Of a stretch of DNA of 15,115 nt, positions 2,864 through 14,325 are shown in pieces. Both the position numbers and the translations under genes were made by a program. Origin of the DNA: Microcoleus sp. SM1_3_4 (lineage in GTDB: Bacteria > Cyanobacteriota > Cyanobacteriia > Cyanobacteriales > Microcoleaceae). The first letter of the stretch is position 1. Each line of letters starts with the position of its first letter. The stretch covers positions 1 to 15,115 of the forward strand of contig JAAUTI010000053.1 of the NCBI GenBank assembly GCA_012031535.1. Direction: 5' to 3'. Under the pieces are notes generated by a model that had not been told where the DNA came from, ran no database searches, and saw only the letters and a program-made list of their open reading frames with translations.

Positions 2864-4685
2864 GTGAAGATCGGAGCAAATTACTCGGGCAACAACCAAT
2901 GTGAATTTACCGTGTGGGCTCCCACCCTCGATCGAGTAGAACTTCACATTGTTTCGCCGCAAAAACTCCTTATCCCCATGCAAAAAACGGCAGCGGGTTA
3001 TTGGACGGCTACAGTGGCAGACATCCCTCCTGGCACTCTTTATACCTACAAACTTGACGGCACGATCGATCGCCCCGATCCGGCTTCCAAATATCAGCCC
3101 CAAGGCGTACACTCTCCATCCCAAGTAATCGACGATCGCGCTTTTACTTGGACTGAGCCAGGTTGGCAAGGTGTTCCTTTACCGGAATGATAATTTACGA
3201 ACTGCACGTCGGTACATTTACGCCAGCCGGAACTTTTGAGGCAATTATTCCGCAACTCGATCGACTCAAACAACTGGGAATTAATGCCATCGAAATTATG
3301 CCCGTGGCTCAATTCCCGGGCGATCGCAACTGGGGCTACGACGGCGTATATCCCTACGCGGTTCAAAATTCCTACGGCGGCCCGGAAGGCTTCAAAAAAC
3401 TTGTTGACTCCTGCCACCAACAAGGCATTTCCGTAATCCTCGATGTCGTTTACAACCACCTCGGACCTGAAGGCAATTATCTGCGCGACTTCGGCCCCTA
3501 CTTTACATCAAAATACGGTTCTATTTGGGGCGACCCCCTCAACTTCGACGACAAATACAGCGATGAAGTGCGCAACTACTTTATTAAAAACGCCGTATAC
3601 TGGTTTCGAGACTATCATATCGATGCTTTGAGACTCGATGCAATTCAAGCAATATTTGAAGTAGGTGCGAGGCCGTTTTTGCAAGAACTCGCCGACACCA
3701 CAGCCGAACTTTCCCAACAACTAGGACGGAAACTTTATCTAATTGCAGAAAGCGACTTGAATGATGTCCGAGTCCTGCGATCGAAAGAATTCGGCGGCTT
3801 CGGACTCGACGCCCATGGTGCGACGATTTTCACCACGCACTGCACGCGCTACTTACAGGAGAAAATGACCGCTATTACCAAGATTTCGGCAAGTGCGAAC
3901 ACCTAGAAAAAGCCTTCAAAGAAAGCTTTGTTTATTCGGGACAATACGCCCCTCACCGATTGCGCAAACACGGCAATTCTGCCGCAGCCCAACCCGCCCA
4001 CCAATTCCTCGTATTTTCCCAAACCCACGACCAAATCGGCAACCGCATTTTGGGAGACCGGCTATCAAAAATAGTTAATTTTGAAGGATTGAAACTTGCT
4101 GCCGGCACTGTTTTAATTTCTCCTTACATTCCATTTTTATTTATGGGTGAAGAGTATGGAGAAGAAACACCGTTTTTGTACTTTGTTTCCCACTCGGATG
4201 AGAACTTAATTGAAGCCATCCGCAAAGACAAACAGCAAGAATTTAAAATTTTTGAAGATAGGGGAGAATTTCAAGACCCCCAGAGTCCTGAAACTTTCCA
4301 AAACTGCAAATTAGATTGGGAAAAACACACCCAAGGGAAACACAAAATCCTCTGGGAATGGCACCAGCAGCTAATTCAATTGCGGCGGACAATTCCCGCC
4401 CTGAAAAAACTCGACAAAAACAGTTTGGAAGTATTTAGTAGCGAAGCCGAAAAAATCTTATTTCTCCGTCGCTGGGCTGATGACAGCCAGATATTTTGCA
4501 TTCTAAACTTCAACAAGCAAGAAGTTGCTATTACGGCTAAAATTCCTCAAGGTAACTGGGAAAAGATTTTAGATTCGATCGACACTAAATGGCTGGGTAC
4601 AGGTTCAACATTACCTCAAAAGATAACTTCCGAGCAAAAATTGACAGTCCAACCGCAAAGTTTTGCGCTTTATCAATTACAGTAA
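2864..4685 (+). CDS. treZ: malto-oligosyltrehalose trehalohydrolase TreZ (GH13 with N-terminal CBM48/E-set domain). Reading frame broken by two single-base frameshifts (near 3185-3190 and 3811-3816). ORF fragments are 2864-3190, 3163-3906 and 3960-4685.
   Basis: GTG start at 2864. Fragment 1 [20 protein letters not shown]...WQGVPLPE is the E-set/CBM48 N-domain. Fragment 2 contains [11 protein letters not shown]...[10 protein letters not shown]...GYDGV and [19 protein letters not shown] (GH13 catalytic regions). Re-translating across 3811-3830 in the third frame gives [54 protein letters not shown], which joins directly onto fragment 3. The three pieces sum to about 607 aa, the normal TreZ length. 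Both shifts are -1 relative to an intact gene. Confidence 0.88.
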
Positions 4686-4789: not shown

Positions 4790-4893
4790 AATTATTAACT
4801 GTTAACTTTTAACCGCAGATAGATGCAGATAAACGCAGATAAACGCAGATAATTCCTCTTTTTAACTGTCAACTGTCAATTACCAATTACCAC
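4790..4893. repeat. mosaic of short tandem repeats in the treZ-treY intergenic spacer: TTAACTGTTAAC, 4x decamer A(A/G)A(C/T)GCAGAT, 2x CAACTGT heptamer, 2x TTACCAA heptamer
   Basis: Seen directly: AACCGCAGAT AGATGCAGAT AAACGCAGAT AAACGCAGAT at 4811-4850, then TTAACTGTCAACTGTCAATTACCAATTACCAC at 4862-4893. The same modules recur at 109-194 (decamers, inverse orientation) and 14441-14488 (heptamers). STRR-like heptanucleotide repeats are typical of filamentous cyanobacteria. Confidence 0.7.
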
Positions 4894-7807: not shown

Positions 7808-10459
7808 CTAGCTTTCATTCGCCCCAGAACCGATCAAACCTTGAGCCGCGTTAAATAAATTGATCGGATTTTTCCCATCAGTAATTAACACGCTTTGAAT
7901 GCCGAGAGATTGCAAAAGTTTAGCCTGCATTTCCGGTCCGGCTTGTGCCATTGCTTTCAAAGTTTCAGGCCCGATAGCCTCTACTTTTTCCCGGAATTCC
8001 GCACTGGTAATTTCCGCCATTCGCTGGGCTTTCTCAATTTCTAGAGTGCTTAGGGCTTGTTGGTGGGCTAATTCTGCTTCCTGTCTGGCCCTCATTTGCG
8101 CCAATTCTCCCTCGGCGCGAATTCTGGCTGCTTCCGCTTCCTGCTGTGCCAAATTCACTGCTAATTCGCCTTGAATTTCGCGCTGCTTCTGCTTTTCGCC
8201 CTCGCTTCGGCTGTCGCGTGCCCGGTAGATTCGATCGCAATATTTTCTGCCTGCAATTCTAACAGATTTTTGCGTTCGGATTCCGCCGCACCCTTATCTA
8301 CAATTGCCTGTCTTTCCAATCTAGCTTTTGCCTCTTGTTCGATGCGGGCTGCATCGTGCTTCGCAGCAGCTTCTTGAGCGTCAGTGGTAATTTGAATTGC
8401 AATTTGTACCGATTTTTGCAAACTTTTTAACGTTGCTTCATCGATCGGTTCGACTGATTGAATGTCAATATTAGTAATGACCAAACTGTTAGTTTTAAAC
8501 CGAAATTCATCTCCGATCCGACCGTCTTCGCTGACGCCAAATACAGCATGGCGGATAATTCGTGCCGAATTGCGGTGGAATTCATCAAACTTTTCTCCCG
8601 CAACTGCACCGCGAACCGAGAGGCAATTGCCTTGCAAGCATCTCCTACAAAATCGGGAACTTGAAACAGTTTTGCCGCCGCTTGTTCGTCGTGCCGCACG
8701 AGATCGAAATACCAGTTATAAGATAGCTGAATTTGCAAGCGAGCGTGATCCGATGTTTCTACAGTAAAAACATCAGTCATAAAATCTGGACCCAGCAACA
8801 AAGCTAAAGATTTAATCGCATTCGGCTTTTTCGGTTTGCCGCCAGACAAACTGAGAACTGTAAACGCTTCATCCGGCCCCAACATCACCAAATCCGGCCC
8901 GAATACAGTGCGGGCAGTGCGATTTTTGTAATCGTGAATTTGCACTGCGGAATTTTGGGGAACGTGGAACACAACTGCCCTGGTTTTATCCCGCAAAACC
9001 TGCATTTCCGAGTGGGCAACACCGCGCAATTGCTGCATTCCGCGATCGGAAATCGGATCGCTTTTTTGTGCTAGCAATTCTTCAACAACTGGCGGCAATT
9101 CTTTTTCCCAAAGTTCCTCGTAAGGACTCAGCATATATGCTTGCGGCCCGCCCACTAATCGGAGTTCTCCTGTTTGGATATCGCGCACGTAAATGCCTTC
9201 ATTCTTATCCAGAGGAATCGCTTTTCGCTTTTCCACAACTTCTACTTCGACGCGGGGAATGTAATCGCGCGGTCCGGAAATCATCCATAAATCCCCCGGT
9301 TGGTGGGAAACTAGATTGTCGCTTTCTCCCTCATTAAAAGCTTCTTTCGCTCTCAATAACAGTGCTTCTTGTTCGCTGAGAACGTAAACTGTTGAATCCC
9401 GCCTTCCAAGATTCTCCCGGATGCAGGAAAAGAAGCTCGACCTGGCGGACTTCTTCAGTCCAATTGAGGCTTACCATCCGCATCAATTGGATCGAGAACA
9501 ATGCACCATTGACGATCGCCCAAAGTAGCAATTTCTACTTCTCCTACTACTTCTTCGTACACGTCGGGAATGTGAATTTCTGCATCTTCAAACGTCACCA
9601 ACCATTCATCGCCCGCTTTTCTCTGCCGCCCGAAAACATCAGTAAAAGTGCGTTTAGCCTTCAAATGCAGGGCTTTTCGTTCCGTCAAAACACAAGCATT
9701 AATAATGTTGACAACAGCTTCATCAACTCCCGGCAAATAAGCACCTTCATCCCTCACCAACCATTCTTCACCAGCGCGGCGGCGGTTTCCTTGCCTGTCA
9801 GTACAAGATTGTCGGGCGATTAAGCGCAAAGCTTGATTCGGTTTAATTACTACAGATTTCACCGTTTCTACAACTTCAACTTCCACGCGCGGCAAATAAG
9901 TTCCCGGCCCTTCAAACAGCCATTCATCCCCAGCCAAACGATTAATTGTTTGACCTTCAGATTCACTTTCTCCTGCCGTTGCTGTAGGGGCAATCCCCCC
10001 GTGGCTGCCCCGCATGGGAGGAGTATCTGCAAAATCTCGCAGTGCTCGGAGGCGCAATGCTTGATTGGTTTCGACAACCTGCAAGCGAGTCACATCCTGC
10101 TCTAATTCTTCTCCCGGATACAGGGCAAAAGGTTCTTGAGCAAAGCGAACTTCTGCATCGCCGTAGCGCAATTTAATTTGTCCGTGAGGGTCAGCAATCG
10201 GTTGATTTTCTGCATCACGGAGGACGGGATTAGCAACAATACAATAGTAGCGCGGCGGCACGATTAGCATCGGTTCCGGTCTTAAAATCAGCCGTTCGTG
10301 GTCGCGCAAAGTGATTGTTTGCGGGCCGACTTCTAGCCTGGTAATGCCCGTATTGTTATCGATGACATGAATGTATTGCTGCGGCTTCAGGCGAATAATG
10401 CCGCTAGAAATCCCCAAAGTTTCACCTTTGTTATCGCGTTTTAGTTCGCTGGTATTCAT
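7808..10459 (-). CDS. Major Vault Protein (MVP) homologue, about 884 codons, full eukaryote-like architecture. Frame broken by four single-base frameshifts (near 9455, 9405, 8613 and 8195). ORF fragments are 9455-10459, 8427-9356, 8161-8637 and 7808-8158.
   Basis: ATG at 10459-10457. The translation matches MVP along its whole length, as I recall the eukaryotic protein. N-terminal repeat region: [20 protein letters not shown]...[12 protein letters not shown]...[20 protein letters not shown]...[22 protein letters not shown]...GEEWLV...[22 protein letters not shown]. Middle: [44 protein letters not shown]...[15 protein letters not shown]...[26 protein letters not shown]...[11 protein letters not shown]...[15 protein letters not shown]...[19 protein letters not shown]. 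Shoulder/cap-helix: [27 protein letters not shown]...[11 protein letters not shown]...[25 protein letters not shown]-terminus: [49 protein letters not shown]. Re-translation across the junctions restores continuity (e.g. [21 protein letters not shown] joins fragment 1 to 2; [15 protein letters not shown] joins 2 to 3). Confidence 0.9.
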
Positions 10460-10552
10460 GATGTTAATAGTTGGTTGTAGGCTGTTTTTCTGGTAGTTGA
10501 GATGCGACTTGGATGGCGATTGTAATGGAGGTTTTTAAACAGTTGACTTGTA

Positions 10553-10628
10553 ATTTGTAGGGTGCGCACTGCGCACCTTACCTGCAAATAATTTGTAGGG
10601 TGCGCACTGCGCACCTTACCTGCAAATA
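10553..10628. repeat. perfect tandem duplication of a 38-bp unit ATTTGTAGGGTGCGCACTGCGCACCTTACCTGCAAATA; each unit contains the palindrome GGTGCGCA-C-TGCGCACC; lies in the MVP upstream region
   Basis: Seen directly: 10553-10590 and 10591-10628 are identical. Inner palindrome arms are GGTGCGCA/TGCGCACC. Outer near-inverted arms are ATTTGTAGG/CCTGCAAAT (8 of 9). The 10-mer ATTTGTAGGG followed by a palindrome centred on GCACTGC also occurs at 7768-7791, downstream of the MVP stop. Confidence 0.8.
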
Positions 10629-10804
10629 GCTGTTCAAATTACTGCGTGGATGAATCCTGTATCAGTTATGTTGTGTCGATCGTACTCTCTCTCTTGTGGG
10701 AGTTACAAACTTGTAACAAAACTACAAAATGTTACATCCAAAAAGTGAAGCTGCTGCCTATTGAGAAAGGTGAAAGATCTCAGATATAACTCAGATCTTG
10801 CAGC

Positions 10805-10885
10805 AATGTCAAAAACCGGGTTTCTGGAAAAAACTCTGCATAAAAACAGATATTTTTCATCAGAAACCCGGTTTCTCGCTTGGTT
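10805..10885. repeat. copy 1 of a dispersed ~75-bp element carrying two AAACC-N-GGTTT palindromes with 51-bp centre-to-centre spacing
   Basis: AAACC-G-GGTTT at 10813-10823 and AGAAACC-C-GGTTTCT at 10862-10876; centres at 10818 and 10869. Arms CCGGGTTTCTG and CAGAAACCCGG can also pair as an 11-bp stem. Second copy at 13228-13305 with identical 51-bp spacing and similar internal sequence ((A)GTATTTTC..C(A/C)(C/G)AAACCCGGTTTC). Located between the protease stop and the MVP upstream repeats. Confidence 0.7.
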
Positions 10886-10919
10886 ATTGAGAATGCTGCA
10901 AGATGTCAAATATAACAGA

Positions 10920-11750
10920 CTATTCTTCTTCGGGTTGGCCTTCAAAAGTTTCCTCAAATCCGGCTAAAAAGTCATCCAAAGCTTCAGCAGAAATTGCCAA
11001 ATTGATGCTGTCGGCTTCTTCCCAACCCCACGTATTCACCCCGACAACTTGACCGGCTGCATTAATTAACGGGCCGCCCGAATTTCCCGGATTGATCGCC
11101 GCATCAGTTTGCAATATTTTCACTTCCGCAATATCGCTGTCTTCGTCCTCTCCTTCTTCATACTCGTCGGGTTCGCGAATTGCACTAATAATGCCCTGGG
11201 TTACAGTTGCAGCAAACTCCCCTAGAGGATTTCCTACCGCAATTACTGGATCTCCCACTTTGACATCAAAAGACAGTTCTAGGGGTGCATATTCTTGAGG
11301 AGATTCTACTTGTTCTCCGGTTTCCGGGTTGATGATAAAATCCGTAACTAATAGCAAAGCTAAATCTTCTTCCGCATTGCCGGTAAAAACTACTTCGGCC
11401 AGCCGCATTTGTCCGCCGTAAGTTTCCACTAAAACCAGTTCTACTTCATCTTCTTCGTAAAAATAATCTTCCTCGGCAATATCTTCGATTACGTGATAGT
11501 TAGTTACAATGATGTCAGGGGAGACAAAGAAGCCGCTGCCGGAGGAAATTTCTTCTTCTAAATCCCAATCCATGACATACACTGAAACTACGGAGGGCAA
11601 GACTCGATCGACTGCACCAGCAAAGTTGCCCGAATGAGTTTTGAGTTCCTTCACTTGCTGCTGCAAAGCTTCACGATCGGCCTCCATTTTGCGGTAAAGT
11701 TGCTGAACTTTTTCCACTTCTAACTTTAGTGTACTTTCCAGATCGCTCAT
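10920..11750 (-). CDS. trypsin-like serine protease (S1/HtrA-type catalytic domain, no PDZ domain, no signal peptide) with N-terminal coiled-coil and highly acidic insertions and C-terminal tail
   Basis: ATG at 11750-11748 with a GAAAGG Shine-Dalgarno-like motif upstream. Catalytic-triad motifs in canonical order: TNYHVIED (His), DLALLLV (Asp), INPGNSGGPLIN (Ser, GNSGGP). N-terminal heptad-like segment LKLEVEKVQQLYRKMEADREALQQQVKELK. Acidic runs EEDYFYEEDEVEL and EPDEYEEGEDEDSD, the latter where HtrA proteases have a short loop. Acidic C-terminal tail FEETFEGQPEEE. Confidence 0.8.
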   Translation of the reverse strand: MSDLESTLKLEVEKVQQLYRKMEADREALQQQVKELKTHSGNFAGAVDRVLPSVVSVYVMDWDLEEEISSGSGFFVSPDIIVTNYHVIEDIAEEDYFYEEDEVELVLVETYGGQMRLAEVVFTGNAEEDLALLLVTDFIINPETGEQVESPQEYAPLELSFDVKVGDPVIAVGNPLGEFAATVTQGIISAIREPDEYEEGEDEDSDIAEVKILQTDAAINPGNSGGPLINAAGQVVGVNTWGWEEADSINLAISAEALDDFLAGFEETFEGQPEEE

Positions 11751-12006
11751 ATTTTGCCTTTCCCCAATTTAGATAAATTGCTGGTTGCTTTTGCGAGATG
11801 CTTAATTGTAGCTGGAGGGAGAGGGCAACCGCGGGGGGTTGCTCCTACTTTCGCGCCATATATAGAGGTCATTAGTAAGTTCCGCACCATCTAGACTTTT
11901 CCACCTGAAACCTACAATTGTCTGCGACTTTACCTGCTGGTTAGCAGCGGCTGGCAAGTCATTTTTACTGCTGGTAAGCTGAGTGAAGGCTAGAGATTTT
12001 CACGCT

Positions 12007-12980
12007 CTAAGAACCGCGCTGAACTTCGACAAAAATCTCCTCTAAAATTTCCTGCGCTCCTTGTTTGCGCAAGCGGTGAGCGAGGTCAATTCCCAACATT
12101 TCGGCTGTTTCGGCAGCACCTGTTACAGTGTCTTTGACTAACCGCTTGCCGTCGAGACTGGCTACCATGCCGGTTAAAGTTAATTGACCGTTTTCTATGT
12201 TAGTATTAACGCCGATCGGCACTTGACAGCCGCCTTCCAATTCCCGCAAAAATGCGCGTTCGGCATAACACCGTTGGGCGGTTTCCGAATGTTCTAAAGC
12301 TTTAATTACTTGTAGAATTTCTGGATCTCCGGCGCGGCATTCAATCCCCAAAGCACCCTGTCCGACAGCGTGCAAAGAGATTTCGGGAGCGATAATTTGA
12401 TGGATGCGATCGCTCATTCCCAATCTTTCCAATCCCGCCACTGCTAAAATAATTGCATCGTAACCGCCCTCATCCAATTTGGCGAGTCTAGTGTTAAGAT
12501 TGCCGCGAATATCTTTAAAATTCAAAATGAGGGAAATGGTGGCGCAATTGGGCGAGCCGGCGCAGGGAAGAAGTGCCGATAACAGCACCTTCTGGCAGGG
12601 TATCGAGTTGCTTGTCTTTGTGTTTTTTCGTGAACTACGAGGGCGTCAGCAGGATTTTCCCGTTCGGTGACGCATCCTAAAATTAAACCTTCGGGTAAAT
12701 TGGTAGGCAAATCCTTGAGGGAATGAACGGCAAAGTCCGTTTCATTGTTCAGCATTCCCGTTTCTAATTCTTTTGTAAAAAGTCCTTTATCGCCGATTTT
12801 GGCTAGGGCGACATCAAGAATTTTATCGCCTTGCGTGGCCATCGTGTGGACTTCAAAAGTACGTTCGGGAAAGTGTTTCTGAAGCTGTGCTTGCACCCAA
12901 TGAGTTTGAACGAGGGCGAGTTGGCTTTTGCGAGAACCGATGCGGACGGTTCTGGAGGGGGCAGATGCGATCGGAGACAT
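12007..12980 (-). CDS. hemC: porphobilinogen deaminase (hydroxymethylbilane synthase) HemC. Frame broken by two homopolymer indels (A6 on the coding strand at plus-strand 12623-12628 and T4 at plus-strand 12517-12520). ORF fragments are 12522-12980 and 12007-12588.
   Basis: ATG at 12980-12978. N-terminus [21 protein letters not shown]...[20 protein letters not shown]...[12 protein letters not shown] is the HemC signature. After VVHEK the frame is lost. Reading one base over gives [37 protein letters not shown] second shift then gives [33 protein letters not shown]...[10 protein letters not shown]...GGCQVPIG (fragment 2). Total about 324 aa. Removing one A from the A6 run and one T from the T4 run restores a single ORF. 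Confidence 0.9.
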
Positions 12981-13227
12981 AGGAACGATGCTTATTTAGG
13001 AGCAGATATATTTACCCCATCTAGCCTACCGCAGGTGGGGACTTTAATTGCTGGTTGGCGCAATTCGGGCGATAAAATAGAAATATCAGATTTCGATCGC
13101 AAGTAGCAGCAATGCTTTCTTGTGTTTCCAGTCAAGCATTTGGTCTAGCAAACTGAGCCGCCATCGAGATTGTTGGCGAAATGCTGCGGGCGATGCGGGA
13201 TTGGCTAACACGGGGGACTGACGCACT

Positions 13228-13305
13228 CCCACGCCTAGAAACCAGGTTTTTTATCTTTGCTGTTGGCCGCCACGAAGTATTTTCTCCACAAACCCGGTTT
13301 CACCG
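13228..13305. repeat. copy 2 of the paired AAACC-N-GGTTT palindrome element (51-bp spacing), in the divergent hemC / Panacea-gene intergenic region
   Basis: AAACC-A-GGTTT at 13239-13249 and AAACC-C-GGTTT at 13290-13300; centres at 13244 and 13295. Sequence preceding the second palindrome (AGTATTTTCTCCACAAACCCGGTTTC) parallels copy 1 (AGATATTTTTCATCAGAAACCCGGTTTC). Confidence 0.7.
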
Positions 13306-13364
13306 TCCCCATATATAAGTTCTAACTCAAAAAAAATCTCACATCTTAAATCCACAATCCAAAA

Positions 13365-13393
13365 TCTTTTTAAACCAGCAAATATCTTATAAT
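13365..13393 (+). promoter_or_regulatory. candidate sigma70-type promoter for the Panacea-domain gene (perfect -10 TATAAT at 13388-13393, weak -35)
   Basis: Consensus TATAAT hexamer 39 nt upstream of the ATG at 13432. Only a weak T-rich -35 (TTTAAA 13369-13374). The paired palindrome element lies 90-190 bp further upstream. Confidence 0.25.
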
Positions 13394-13431
13394 TACAAGT
13401 AAATTTGTCAAATTACTCAAATTCTCAAATT

Positions 13432-13887
13432 ATGAAAAGTGCTCTGGATGTAGCTCGTTACTTTTTATGTCGGGTCGATCGAGAATCAGGCGATACTATT
13501 TCTCTGCTCAAATTGCAAAAGCTCGTGTATTACGCTCAAGCTTGGAGTTTAGTTTTTAGAAGCCAGCCGCTATTTTTTCAAGATGTTGAAGCTTGGGTTT
13601 CCGGCCCTGTTGTCCGCGATGTTTGGAATGAATACAAAGCTTACAAATATAGCGATATTCCCGTTCCCGATAACTTTGATGGAGAATTTGAGGAAGATGA
13701 ACTCGAAGTTCTCGAAGAAGTTTGGAATGCTTATGGAGAATTAAGTGCTAAACATTTGGCAGAACTAACGCACTCAGAGATGCCTTGGTTAAACGCTCGC
13801 AAGGGATTAGAACCTGCGGAAACATCAACTAACATCATCTCTCACGATGATATGAAAGACTGCTATTCATCTTTGGTAGAGGCATAA
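13432..13887 (+). CDS. Panacea-domain (DUF4065, SocA/PanA-like) protein; putative type II antitoxin
   Basis: The ORF track begins at a TTG (13405). The first ATG is at 13432 (MKSALDVARYF...). The core DTISLLKLQKLVYYAQAWSLVFRSQPLFFQDVEAWVSGPVVRDVWNEYKAY matches the DUF4065/Panacea signature (hydrophobic LKLQKL(L/V)YYAQ..., then AW..GPVV..V(Y/W)..YK). Acidic C-terminal half. Confidence 0.65.
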   Translation: MKSALDVARYFLCRVDRESGDTISLLKLQKLVYYAQAWSLVFRSQPLFFQDVEAWVSGPVVRDVWNEYKAYKYSDIPVPDNFDGEFEEDELEVLEEVWNAYGELSAKHLAELTHSEMPWLNARKGLEPAETSTNIISHDDMKDCYSSLVEA

Positions 13888-14325
13888 GTGGGAAAAAAGA
13901 ATCAAATACCAAAACCACCTCAAAAACAACAAAGAAAAATTCCAGAAGCAGCAACCCTGTTAAGCCAACCAAGCAGTACAGATAACGAGCATCCTAGCTT
14001 CCGATTTACCTATGCAGATAAAAATCGTTGGCTGCTGTCCGATTGGACAGCATCAGAAATCAATGACCTAATTGCAGGACTGAAGAAAATTGAAAAATAT
14101 ACTTGGGCTCAAATCAAAGGTCATGGCTCAAAAAAACGAGGTGAATCAGTAGGAACGGGTTATAAGTTAATTGACACCCATCCGACTTTGCCTGACAATA
14201 TTCCTGAAGATGAAAGATTATCAGAGATGCGAATTGATGAGAAAAAACGGATATTTGGGTTTCGCGTTCAATCTGTTTACTACATCGTTTGGTTCGATCG
14301 CGACCATTCTGTTTGTCCAGAATAA
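13888..14325 (+). CDS. hypothetical protein, possible RelE/HigB-superfamily-like toxin partner of the upstream Panacea protein; GTG start immediately after the upstream TAA stop, in the same reading frame
   Basis: Uninterrupted 145-codon ORF with no internal ATG before codon ~110. The C-terminal region GYKLIDTHPTLPDN...RIFGFRVQSVYYIVWFDRDHS resembles, as I recall it, the HigB/RelE C-terminus (YKLHPLKGD...WRITFQF.NGDAYILNYEDYH). The N-terminal ~40 residues are low-complexity (K/Q/P-rich). Assignment by eye only. Confidence 0.4.
   Translation: MGKKNQIPKPPQKQQRKIPEAATLLSQPSSTDNEHPSFRFTYADKNRWLLSDWTASEINDLIAGLKKIEKYTWAQIKGHGSKKRGESVGTGYKLIDTHPTLPDNIPEDERLSEMRIDEKKRIFGFRVQSVYYIVWFDRDHSVCPE

Follow-up and report, generated by a model that had tools for sequence, protein, structure and literature searches.

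Paired AAACC palindromes in Microcoleus sp. SM1_3_4 are probably copies of a small mobile repeat family of filamentous cyanobacteria

The DNA analysed here, referred to as the window, is the whole 15,115-nt stretch of contig JAAUTI010000053.1 from Microcoleus sp. SM1_3_4. It contains hemC and a Panacea toxin-antitoxin module in divergent arrangement, a protease gene and the vault-protein gene (MVP). The palindromic 11-mer AAACCNGGTTT was found exactly four times in the window, starting at positions 10813, 10864, 13239 and 13290, against a chance expectation of 0.04, and a count of four was reached in none of 200 shuffles. As a preliminary description of this DNA had stated, the sites form two pairs, both spaced 51 nt start to start. 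Similarity reaches past the 11-mer, and a 15-nt arm encloses every site (Table 1). The two arms of a pair are inverted repeats of each other, AGAAACCSGGTTTYT ... ARAAACCSGGTTTCT, with a variable interior of ~36 nt between them, and the core common to both window copies measures ~66 nt. The element length of ~75 bp given earlier was an underestimate, as the core lies within a unit of 120 nt in copy 1 and of ~112 nt in copy 2. Both units are non-coding, and the open reading frames overlapping them are short and spurious. Such elements were seen to yield spurious reading frames with KPGF, ETRF and RNRVS repeats.

Table 1. Positions of the two repeat copies and their parts in the window
Feature	Position	Strand	Sequence	Remark
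Copy 1	10790-10909	-		Intact 120-nt B-type MITE with the AAACC-pair hairpin core inside
Copy 1 terminal inverted repeats, 13 bp	10790-10802; 10897-10909		CTCAGATCTTGCA; TGCAAGATGTCAA	From inverted-repeat search
Copy 1 left target-site duplication	10784-10789	.	ATATAA	Same hexamer at 10910-10915
Copy 1 right target-site duplication	10910-10915	.	ATATAA	
Copy 1 core arm 1	10811-10825	.	AAAAACCGGGTTTCT	
Copy 1 core arm 2	10862-10876	.	AGAAACCCGGTTTCT	Perfect 15-bp consensus
Relic, end of another B-type element	10759-10783	.	TATTGAGAAAGGTGAAAGATCTCAG	Just outside copy 1
Copy 2	about 13212-13325	-		Decayed A-type element, ~112 nt; from alignment with canonical copies
Copy 2 outer inverted repeats, degenerate	13214-13226; 13311-13323		GGGACTGACGCAC; ATATATAAGTTCT	
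Copy 2 core arm 1	13237-13251	.	AGAAACCAGGTTTTT	2 mismatches against the consensus
Copy 2 core arm 2	13288-13302	.	ACAAACCCGGTTTCA	2 mismatches against the consensus

Both copies are members of one repeat family: a covariance model trained without the window scored copy 1 at 62.1 bits (E = 1e-16) and copy 2 at 45.3 bits (E = 2e-11). The two are independent insertions of different element types, one intact and one decayed. Copy 1 begins 11 nt downstream of the protease stop codon. Its earlier placement upstream of MVP is true, yet it lies directly behind the protease gene, and the conserved block upstream of MVP (~10690-10765) is separate from it. The arm centres of copy 1 are G and C and complement each other. 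A relative on plasmid NC_019764 of Oscillatoria nigro-viridis PCC 7112 (82.8% identity over 122 nt) exactly fills the gap between two convergent genes, and copy 1 matches 13 places in a Kovacikia replicon. Just outside copy 1, the relic directly adjoins the conserved MVP-upstream block and resembles the B-type shell ends at three other loci (L130, L111 and L113); the segments 10759-10790 and 10885-10916 form a direct repeat with 84% match, and the ATATAA repeat flanking copy 1 is partly confounded by this neighbouring end of another element. In copy 2 the central A of arm 1 has no pairing partner in the other arm, the canonical A-type ends (CAGGACTTACGCAC and TGCGTAAGTCCTG) are degenerate, and no target-site duplication was recognisable; a profile restricted to the interior matched positions 13259-13284 with E = 0.19. 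Copy 2 is located at a synteny break relative to the nearest relatives. A comparison of folds, suggested in the preliminary description, gave a strong structure for copy 1 (z = -8.1 to -9.7 against shuffles; hairpin of -37 to -58 kcal/mol) and one hardly above shuffles for copy 2 (z = +0.4 to -1.9).

Across the family, complementarity between the arms ends exactly 2 nt beyond the 11-mer on either side, and the position outside the arms, which read AGAAACC...GGTTTCT, is variable. Among the elements listed, the two arm centres read G/C in 100, C/G in 23 and were non-complementary in 17; the base just inside each arm was C:G in 34 of 70 copies and T:A in 30 of 70. Compensatory, two-sided changes occurred at three arm positions of the 15-bp stem, and the arm covariation score was reached in none of 500 shuffles. 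The palindrome within a site is broken in ~40% of members, with arm-to-arm complementarity retained. When single-stranded, as DNA or RNA, the arms pair with each other, and a large loop is closed by the resulting 15-bp stem. Support was confined to this stem: the interior is unpaired in the consensus of the family, no consensus-fold pairs were found in it for the 47-copy T-variant subfamily, and the loop sequence is not conserved between subfamilies.

A variable-gap scan for arm pairs, in which each species was represented by a single genome, recovered at least 120 genome stretches, a number that together with the window count rules out chance. About 100 of the matches listed were from filamentous or named cyanobacteria and nine from Chloroflexota; the ecologically important Microcoleus, Trichodesmium, Okeania, Arthrospira and Planktothrix all have the family, and the arms are alike nearly letter for letter across Oscillatoriales, Nostocales and several orders of Chloroflexota. 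Spacings of 49, 50, 51, 52 and 53 nt were found 34, 24, 26, 24 and 15 times, that is, in 123 of ~150 cases among the matches listed; in Chloroflexota the spacing went down to 44-47 nt, and none of 19 viral-contig matches used as a control fell at 49-53 nt. Because family spacings are near-even over 49-53 nt, and two random members have equal spacing ~21% of the time, the identical 51-nt spacing of the window pairs is not special. Elements are restricted largely to intergenic DNA (132 of 138 among those listed, though ~72% of the DNA is coding) and are biased toward the 3' ends of genes, with flanking genes in convergent orientation in 33 cases, tandem in 69 and divergent in nine. At gathering scores the window had no match in Rfam 15, an Rfam search of nine canonical-copy loci at E <= 1 yielded nothing beyond chance miRNA matches, and a tRNA/tmRNA scan of the window returned nothing. 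The suggestion of a structured small RNA is accordingly unsupported as far as an independent gene is concerned, there being no Rfam match, no promoter and no loop conservation between subfamilies.

The core is housed inside MITE shells with terminal inverted repeats and target-site duplications of their own. Two shell types were distinguished, the B-type with CTSAGATCTTGCA at both ends and the A-type with the ends CAGGACTTACGCA / TGCGTAAGTCCTG. Duplications of 6 bp were clean in two B-type copies (TTACAC in L130, GTCAGA in L028), and three of six B-type copies had flanking repeats of merely 4 bp; several A-type copies, including those at L030, L052, L010 and L097, had 5-bp duplications (TTCGT, TAAAA, ATTAT, GGTCT). 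Other hairpin cores occupied the same shells at L010, L097, L028 and L048. Neither an A nor a B shell was present in 84 of 140 copies among the elements listed, and no target duplication was found beside bare cores or arms. Arms were further seen in back-to-back arrangement at 18 nt, and 83-nt tandem arrays occurred as well. The ~0.85 Mb of sequence flanking the sampled loci yielded no parent insertion sequence and no transposase whose ends match, no recurrent transposase emerged from all-against-all clustering of the 1119 open reading frames in these loci, and distant pairs of shell ends enclosed none. Uma2 and TnpB genes occurred at the loci at background frequency only, and where arms bracket a gene it has a housekeeping role. 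An HUH/Y1 motif screen of all locus reading frames identified a single gene, at L052, which encodes an IS200-like TnpA, has no arms beside it, is separated from the element by 7.5 kb and resembles an ordinary IS200 TnpA; a tblastn search with it against plasmids gave generic IS200/IS605 matches and was uninformative.

Comparison with orthologous loci revealed differences in presence and in decay between related genomes. The two closest relatives (L125 and L126), in which the protease is 95-96% identical, keep the hemC-protease-MVP order and have neither copy, and the covariance model trained without the window gave no hit at all in them. In three further relatives (L127, L128 and L129) the model found weaker copies at other positions or in other gaps, and these orthologous copies are decaying without replacement. 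The Panacea-hemC arrangement is kept in L129, where the homologous promoter stretch contains no element. The position after the protease gene holds some palindromic repeat in all four near relatives, of differing families. The bracketing of the hemC-protease block by the two copies, remarked on previously, is a coincidence, as relatives have the block without the elements. A composite transposon around hemC and the protease gene was rejected on the same ground and because the copies are of different types.

The preliminary description proposed that a dimeric transcription factor binds each pair cooperatively at two operators five helical turns apart, and such a factor would control MVP and the divergent hemC and Panacea promoters. 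Paired operators of dimeric repressors are indeed palindromic sites ~50 bp apart; each site here is palindromic, both window pairs share one spacing, and one pair lies within a divergent intergenic region. This proposal is already largely refuted, and we regard it as very improbable. The sites are missing from the closest orthologous loci, including the homologous promoter stretch of L129, and where orthologous copies exist they decay. The window copies are different element types, one of them decaying, and the sequence conserved upstream of MVP is a different one from copy 1, which sits behind a stop codon. Family spacing is flat and unphased and is shorter still in Chloroflexota, unlike that of paired operators, and arm-to-arm complementarity overrides the within-site symmetry, which ~40% of members have lost. 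Divergent, promoter-bearing gaps are avoided relative to convergent ones, and most elements lie at gene 3' ends. A cis-acting RNA hairpin selected by the host, recruited repeatedly to gene ends as a 3'-end mRNA stabiliser, attenuator or bidirectional terminator, would agree with this location, with the stability of copy 1 (z about -9) so close behind the protease stop codon, with the palindromic repeats of different families after the protease gene in near relatives and with the plasmid copy filling a convergent gap. We nevertheless consider it improbable, since purifying selection against promoter insertions would produce the same 3'-end bias, decay has affected copy 2 as well as the orthologous copies of L127-L129 with nothing taking their place, and no Rfam family matches. 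Nor does the hairpin resemble an intrinsic terminator, which has a GC-rich stem directly adjoined by a free U-tract: no free U-tract follows the stem, the U-run of copy 1 lies inside it, and a terminator scan of 10400-13500 called neither copy.

An alternative of another kind is that the pair is a REP-like doublet copied as a single-stranded hairpin by a domesticated single-copy HUH/Y1 (RAYT-like) or other dedicated enzyme, with the shells incidental. REPs, REPINs and BIMEs of Pseudomonas and Enterobacteria (Bertels & Rainey 2011, PMC3116915; Di Nocera 2013, PMC3733652) share with the family the inverted doublet with its spacer and hairpin, compensatory arm changes, extragenic location and the occurrence of mosaics and arrays, here in the form of back-to-back arms and 83-nt tandem arrays. 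Bare cores without target duplication would be expected from single-strand transposition, and the many copies without either shell and the conservation of the arms in two phyla also agree with it. Against this stand the lack of an arm-flanked Y1/HUH or associated RAYT gene in the sampled loci, where the sole Y1 gene is distant, the lack of the GTAG/CGTC tag typical of RAYT-associated REPs, arms of merely 15 nt, an arm sequence spread more widely than known REPs, across orders and into a second phylum, and the fact that both window copies lie in shells and canonical A and B members have classical target duplications. We consider this explanation unlikely, though less so than a host-selected RNA hairpin. 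Slightly easier to entertain, and still doubtful, is that the AGAAACCSGGTTTCT arm pair is an independently propagating hairpin module that rides in at least two unrelated MITE shells and also occurs without a recognised shell.

On balance, with a probability of roughly 0.85, both sites are copies of a small, non-coding, non-autonomous mobile repeat family of filamentous cyanobacteria, as the description of a dispersed REP/MITE-like palindromic element had it; that suggestion is supported in full. Transposases encoded elsewhere would move the elements in trans, and at least two different ones are probably involved, because the two shells differ in their ends and in duplication length. The uniformity of the arms may reflect that only copies with intact ends and hairpin were propagated, rather than a local function. 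Several observations weigh against this explanation: the ~0.85 Mb of flanks yielded neither an autonomous element nor a transposase whose ends match; the bare core has no target duplication, so that it may move either by itself or as cargo only; flanking repeats are as short as 4 bp in three of six B-type copies; the ATATAA repeat of copy 1 is partly confounded by the relic beside it; and identical 15-nt arms recur across Oscillatoriales, Nostocales and Chloroflexota, a conservation far wider than is usual for MITE ends, which leaves room for a host-level function.

Bacterial MITEs such as Nezha of Anabaena and Nostoc and Correia/NEMIS of Neisseria are small, non-coding, hairpin-forming and without a transposase of their own. 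The elements described here, compared with Nezha by description only, agree with them in size (105-125 nt), in the absence of coding capacity and of an own transposase, in terminal inverted repeats, target-site duplications and hairpin, and in being intergenic, multicopy and present or absent in related genomes. They differ in that no parent insertion sequence with matching ends was found in the ~0.85 Mb sampled, that two shell types with 5- and 6-bp duplications share one core and carry other cores as well, and that conservation of the core arms extends to two phyla. Small dispersed repeats (SDRs) of Nostoc punctiforme are reportedly single units of 21-27 nt, reported alongside minitransposons, and are said to be nested in other repeats and minitransposons and seemingly mobile without coding capacity; compared by description only, they are likewise very small, nested and mobile-looking, and differ in being such single units. 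The earlier proviso that the elements might simply be fragments of a known IS or MITE family holds in spirit. No published description of this family was found in a full-text search on the motif and shell ends, which gave unrelated papers only, or in the cyanobacterial MITE, SDR and RAYT literature, and none of the papers searched shows the motif in connection with cyanobacteria. Integron attC sites were rejected, as the arms do not fit RYYYAAC/GTTRRRY cores and cassette arrays are absent, and so were CRISPRs, for which the period is wrong and variable spacers are absent.

At this locus the elements do not regulate hemC, the protease gene, MVP or the Panacea module, and for annotation the sites should be masked as repeats instead of being read as regulatory motifs of these genes. 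The only plausible local effect comes from copy 1: the hemC-protease transcript would carry its very stable hairpin at the 3' end, where it could stabilise the RNA or weakly insulate the transcript from the MVP promoter. The elements also mark rearrangement borders. Should the arm pair prove to be an independently propagating module, this would imply a putative, widely conserved trans-acting protein, perhaps a RAYT-like enzyme, perhaps a host factor, that recognises the 15-mer or the hairpin. The family would then be a REPIN-type system that lies outside Proteobacteria and reaches across phyla. Interchangeable hairpin cores, and arms identical in two phyla, are relevant to the spread and maintenance of very small repeats.

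The palindrome AAACCNGGTTT occurs four times in the window (starts at 10813, 10864, 13239 and 13290) against a chance expectation of 0.04, and none of 200 shuffled sequences attained four occurrences. As the preliminary description had stated, the sites form two pairs of equal spacing, with 51 nt from start to start in each, and the public record of the window (L001) holds all four sites and both spacings unchanged. Each site is contained in a longer 15-nt unit; a mismatch-tolerant search of the window with AGAAACCSGGTTTCT returned the same four places, with 0, 1, 2 and 2 mismatches, and an additional match at 4163-4177, at the limit of three mismatches, looks like a chance occurrence. The first pair is surrounded by a larger inverted repeat (10780-10817 versus 10882-10919).

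The pattern AAACCNGGTTT-N(25-55)-AAACCNGGTTT, permitting spacings of 36-66 nt, was scanned against one genome per bacterial or archaeal species, for which about 16 or more chance matches are expected when summed over gap lengths. At least 120 stretches carried the pair. Among the stretches listed, about 100 were cyanobacterial (Microcoleus, Lyngbya, Oscillatoria, Tychonema, Okeania, Trichodesmium, Arthrospira, Phormidium, Calothrix, Brasilonema and others), six were further MAGs whose GC content is cyanobacterial and whose elements are of the same types, nine belonged to Chloroflexota (GC 0.50-0.66) and a few were evident chance matches or unrelated tandem repeats. Spacings of 49-53 nt made up 123 of about 150 pairs among the matches listed (34, 24, 26, 24 and 15 pairs at 49, 50, 51, 52 and 53 nt, respectively), and the same scan of viral contigs as a control gave 19 matches with spacings of 36-63 nt, none of them at 49-53 nt. 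An O. nigro-viridis plasmid, sampled without bias over 50 kb, had exact sites only as a single pair with a 50-nt spacing. The sites are therefore truly and specifically paired, but without phasing of the spacing, and two members of the family have an identical spacing about one time in five. Seven Chloroflexota MAG contigs (L036, L040, L075, L060, L025, L051 and L106; GC 0.50-0.61) carry AGAAACCSGGTTTCT arms, mostly at a shorter spacing of 44-47 nt, some copies having 17-bp arms (TCTCC...GGAGA).

Beyond the 11-nt sites, the two members of a pair stay complementary for exactly two further positions on the outer side (AG/CT) and two on the inner side, and then drop to background. Covariation was read at positions unconstrained by the search pattern: the central arm bases were G/C in 100 elements, C/G in 23 and non-complementary in 17, and among 70 sequences the first inner arm position was C:G in 34 and T:A in 30, while the outer G:C had become A:T in 7. 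The covariation score was attained by none of 500 shuffles and collapsed in slid controls. In the T:A variant a single site is not a perfect palindrome, yet the arms are exact reverse complements. Such covariation is expected of inverted-repeat arms or a hairpin but not of two independent sites bound by a symmetric dimer. Folding 47 members of a single subfamily gave a consensus of a 15-bp stem only, enclosing a loop of about 39 nt with conserved ACGAAAATACTTCGTTACAGCCCGCAGATTCGGTAAA and no supported pairs; loops of other subfamilies are unrelated. Other arrangements of the arms were back-to-back placement at 18 nt and tandem arrays repeating about every 83 nt. When translated, AGAAACCCGGTTTCT gives KPGF, ETRF or RNRVS (L070:2983-6603, L009:1250-1344, window 10761-10967), and repeat arrays therefore make long spurious ORFs, for example with 'EEEKPGFLG' repeats, which group together in protein comparisons.

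The core, that is, the two arms and their interior, is housed in at least two kinds of MITE-like shell with terminal inverted repeats. A-type shells (about 105-108 nt) have the ends CAGGACTTACGCA ... TGCGTAAGTCCTG, with 5-bp flanking duplications in several copies (TTCGT, TAAAA, ATTAT, GGTCT). B-type shells (about 118-130 nt) have the ends CTSAGATCTTGCA ... TGCAAGATSTSAG, flanked by duplications of TTACAC (L130), GTCAGA (L028) and ATATAA (window), or of 4 bp only in three other copies. Quite different palindromic cores were found in both A-type (L010:2454-2558, L097:7362-7449) and B-type shells (L028:1903-2032, L048:7340-7460), and cyanobacterial MITE shells therefore seem to swap central hairpin modules. 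Neither shell was present at 84 of 140 cores, and a search for target duplications beside bare cores found none. Coding sequence makes up about 72% of the sampled DNA, yet 132 of 138 elements lay outside long ORFs, with 33 in convergent gaps, 69 between tandem genes and 9 between divergent genes. This orientation pattern is the usual one for REP and MITE elements, and may reflect counter-selection of promoter insertions or hairpins being tolerated or useful at 3' ends.

Positions of the two element copies and neighbouring genes in the window
Feature	Coordinates	Strand	Remarks
Major vault protein (MVP) repeats	9455-10459	minus	Pfam
Relic of another B-type end	10759-10783		just outside copy 1
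Copy 1	10790-10909		intact B-type element; ATATAA at 10784-10789 and 10910-10915
Trypsin_2 protease	10920-11750	minus	Pfam
hemC	12007-12980		two overlapping ORFs; Pfam
Copy 2	~13212-13325		degenerate A-type outer repeats
SocA/Panacea antitoxin	13432-13887		151 aa; Pfam
145-aa ORF	pair within 13432-14325		directly after SocA/Panacea gene; no Pfam match

A covariance model trained on 70 other members recognised copy 1 with 62.1 bits (E = 1e-16) and copy 2 with 45.3 bits (E = 2e-11), with no further match over the rest of the window. Over 122 nt, copy 1 shares 82.8% identity with a copy that precisely occupies the gap between convergent genes on plasmid NC_019764 (O. nigro-viridis PCC 7112); copy 1 also matched 13 places on a Kovacikia replicon and folds far better than its shuffles (z = -8.1 to -9.7). 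In copy 2 the arms have two mismatches each and a non-pairing central base, the interior was matched weakly by an interiors-only profile (E = 0.19), and folding as DNA did not surpass that of shuffles, while as RNA it was only slightly better.

Five related loci (L125-L129) were obtained via homologues of the protease, the closest of which are from Oscillatoriaceae and Microcoleus; an identical protease is encoded on contig JAAUVE010000027.1 of MAG GCA_012030855.1. L125 and L126 (95-96% protein identity) retain hemC-protease-MVP, with no sites even at one mismatch and no covariance-model matches; at the position of copy 1 (L125:3150-3240 and the L126 equivalent) the repeat is another palindromic one (CTGTAGGGGCGAAGCATTTGG...CCAAATGCTTCGCCCTGTCACAG). 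In L127 (90% identity) the protease gene is followed by a decayed AAACC core of the other subtype, so the spot just behind the protease stop codon has repeatedly hosted different families of hairpin repeats. L128 and L129 (about 80% identity) instead have A-type copies, likewise decayed, in the gap from hemC to the protease gene; what is apparently the same insertion has lost different arm positions in the two species. L129 also shares the window's divergent Panacea-hemC layout, and its promoter-proximal stretch is homologous but lacks the element. Upstream of hemC, homology of the window to L125 and L126 breaks off no more than about 10 nt from copy 2, so this element lies at the edge of a variable segment; among relatives this segment is an island of PhdYeFM/PIN, Panacea or other genes. 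The SocA/Panacea gene and the adjoining 145-aa ORF are a candidate PanA-type toxin-antitoxin pair.

Upstream of MVP, a non-coding block at about 10690-10765 (CAGCAGCTTCACTTTTTGGATGTAACATTTTGTAGTTTTGTTACAAGTTTGTAAC on the gene strand) shows almost no variation across all the relatives with MVP (L125, L126 and L127). It holds GTAAC-N13-GTTAC and the near-palindrome TTACAAGTTTGTAA and is a better candidate than the repeat for an MVP promoter or operator. Nearby, 10551-10626 is a perfect 38-bp tandem duplication of TAATTTGTAGGGTGCGCACTGCGCACCTTACCTGCAAA, a GTAG-type REP-like palindrome present as one or two diverged copies in relatives. Arrays of the 10-nt unit ATCTGCGTTA at 109-204 and 4811-4854, inverted and 4.6 kb apart, are 91% complementary over 44 nt and flank the segment 243-4685. 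Aligned over 10.5 kb, the window and its public record show 5 mismatches and 14 gap openings. In the three MVP-bearing relatives hemC (323 aa) and MVP (891-908 aa) are intact; the public record has hemC called intact (323 aa) and MVP not called, and in the window MVP is broken into at least three ORFs (8161-10459). Assembly indels are a likely cause of the hemC frame break; that they also split MVP is a guess only, because MVP is uncalled in the public record as well.

The reading of each pair as operators bound cooperatively by a dimeric regulator is rejected: the arms covary as an inverted repeat, the 49-53 nt spacing is unphased and the sites are absent from L125 and L126. The alternative of a REP/MITE-like dispersed repeat is borne out by the recurrent pairs and by shells with terminal repeats and duplications, and we regard copies 1 and 2 as non-autonomous mobile repeats. 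It is rather improbable that the hairpin core is a REPIN-like unit (an inverted REP doublet) with its own enzyme, rather than mere cargo of MITE shells. Only one feature is unusual for ordinary MITEs, namely that the 15-nt arms are identical across two phyla; no transposase, RAYT (REP-associated Y1-type enzyme) or any other gene recurrently associated with the elements was found in the sampled loci.

No Rfam family matched, and a full-text literature search did not find the motif printed in a cyanobacterial context; the family appears to be formally undescribed so far. The elements are probably mobilised in trans, and the uniformity of their arms is probably maintained by selection for propagation and not for function at each site. 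The element is of an ordinary kind.
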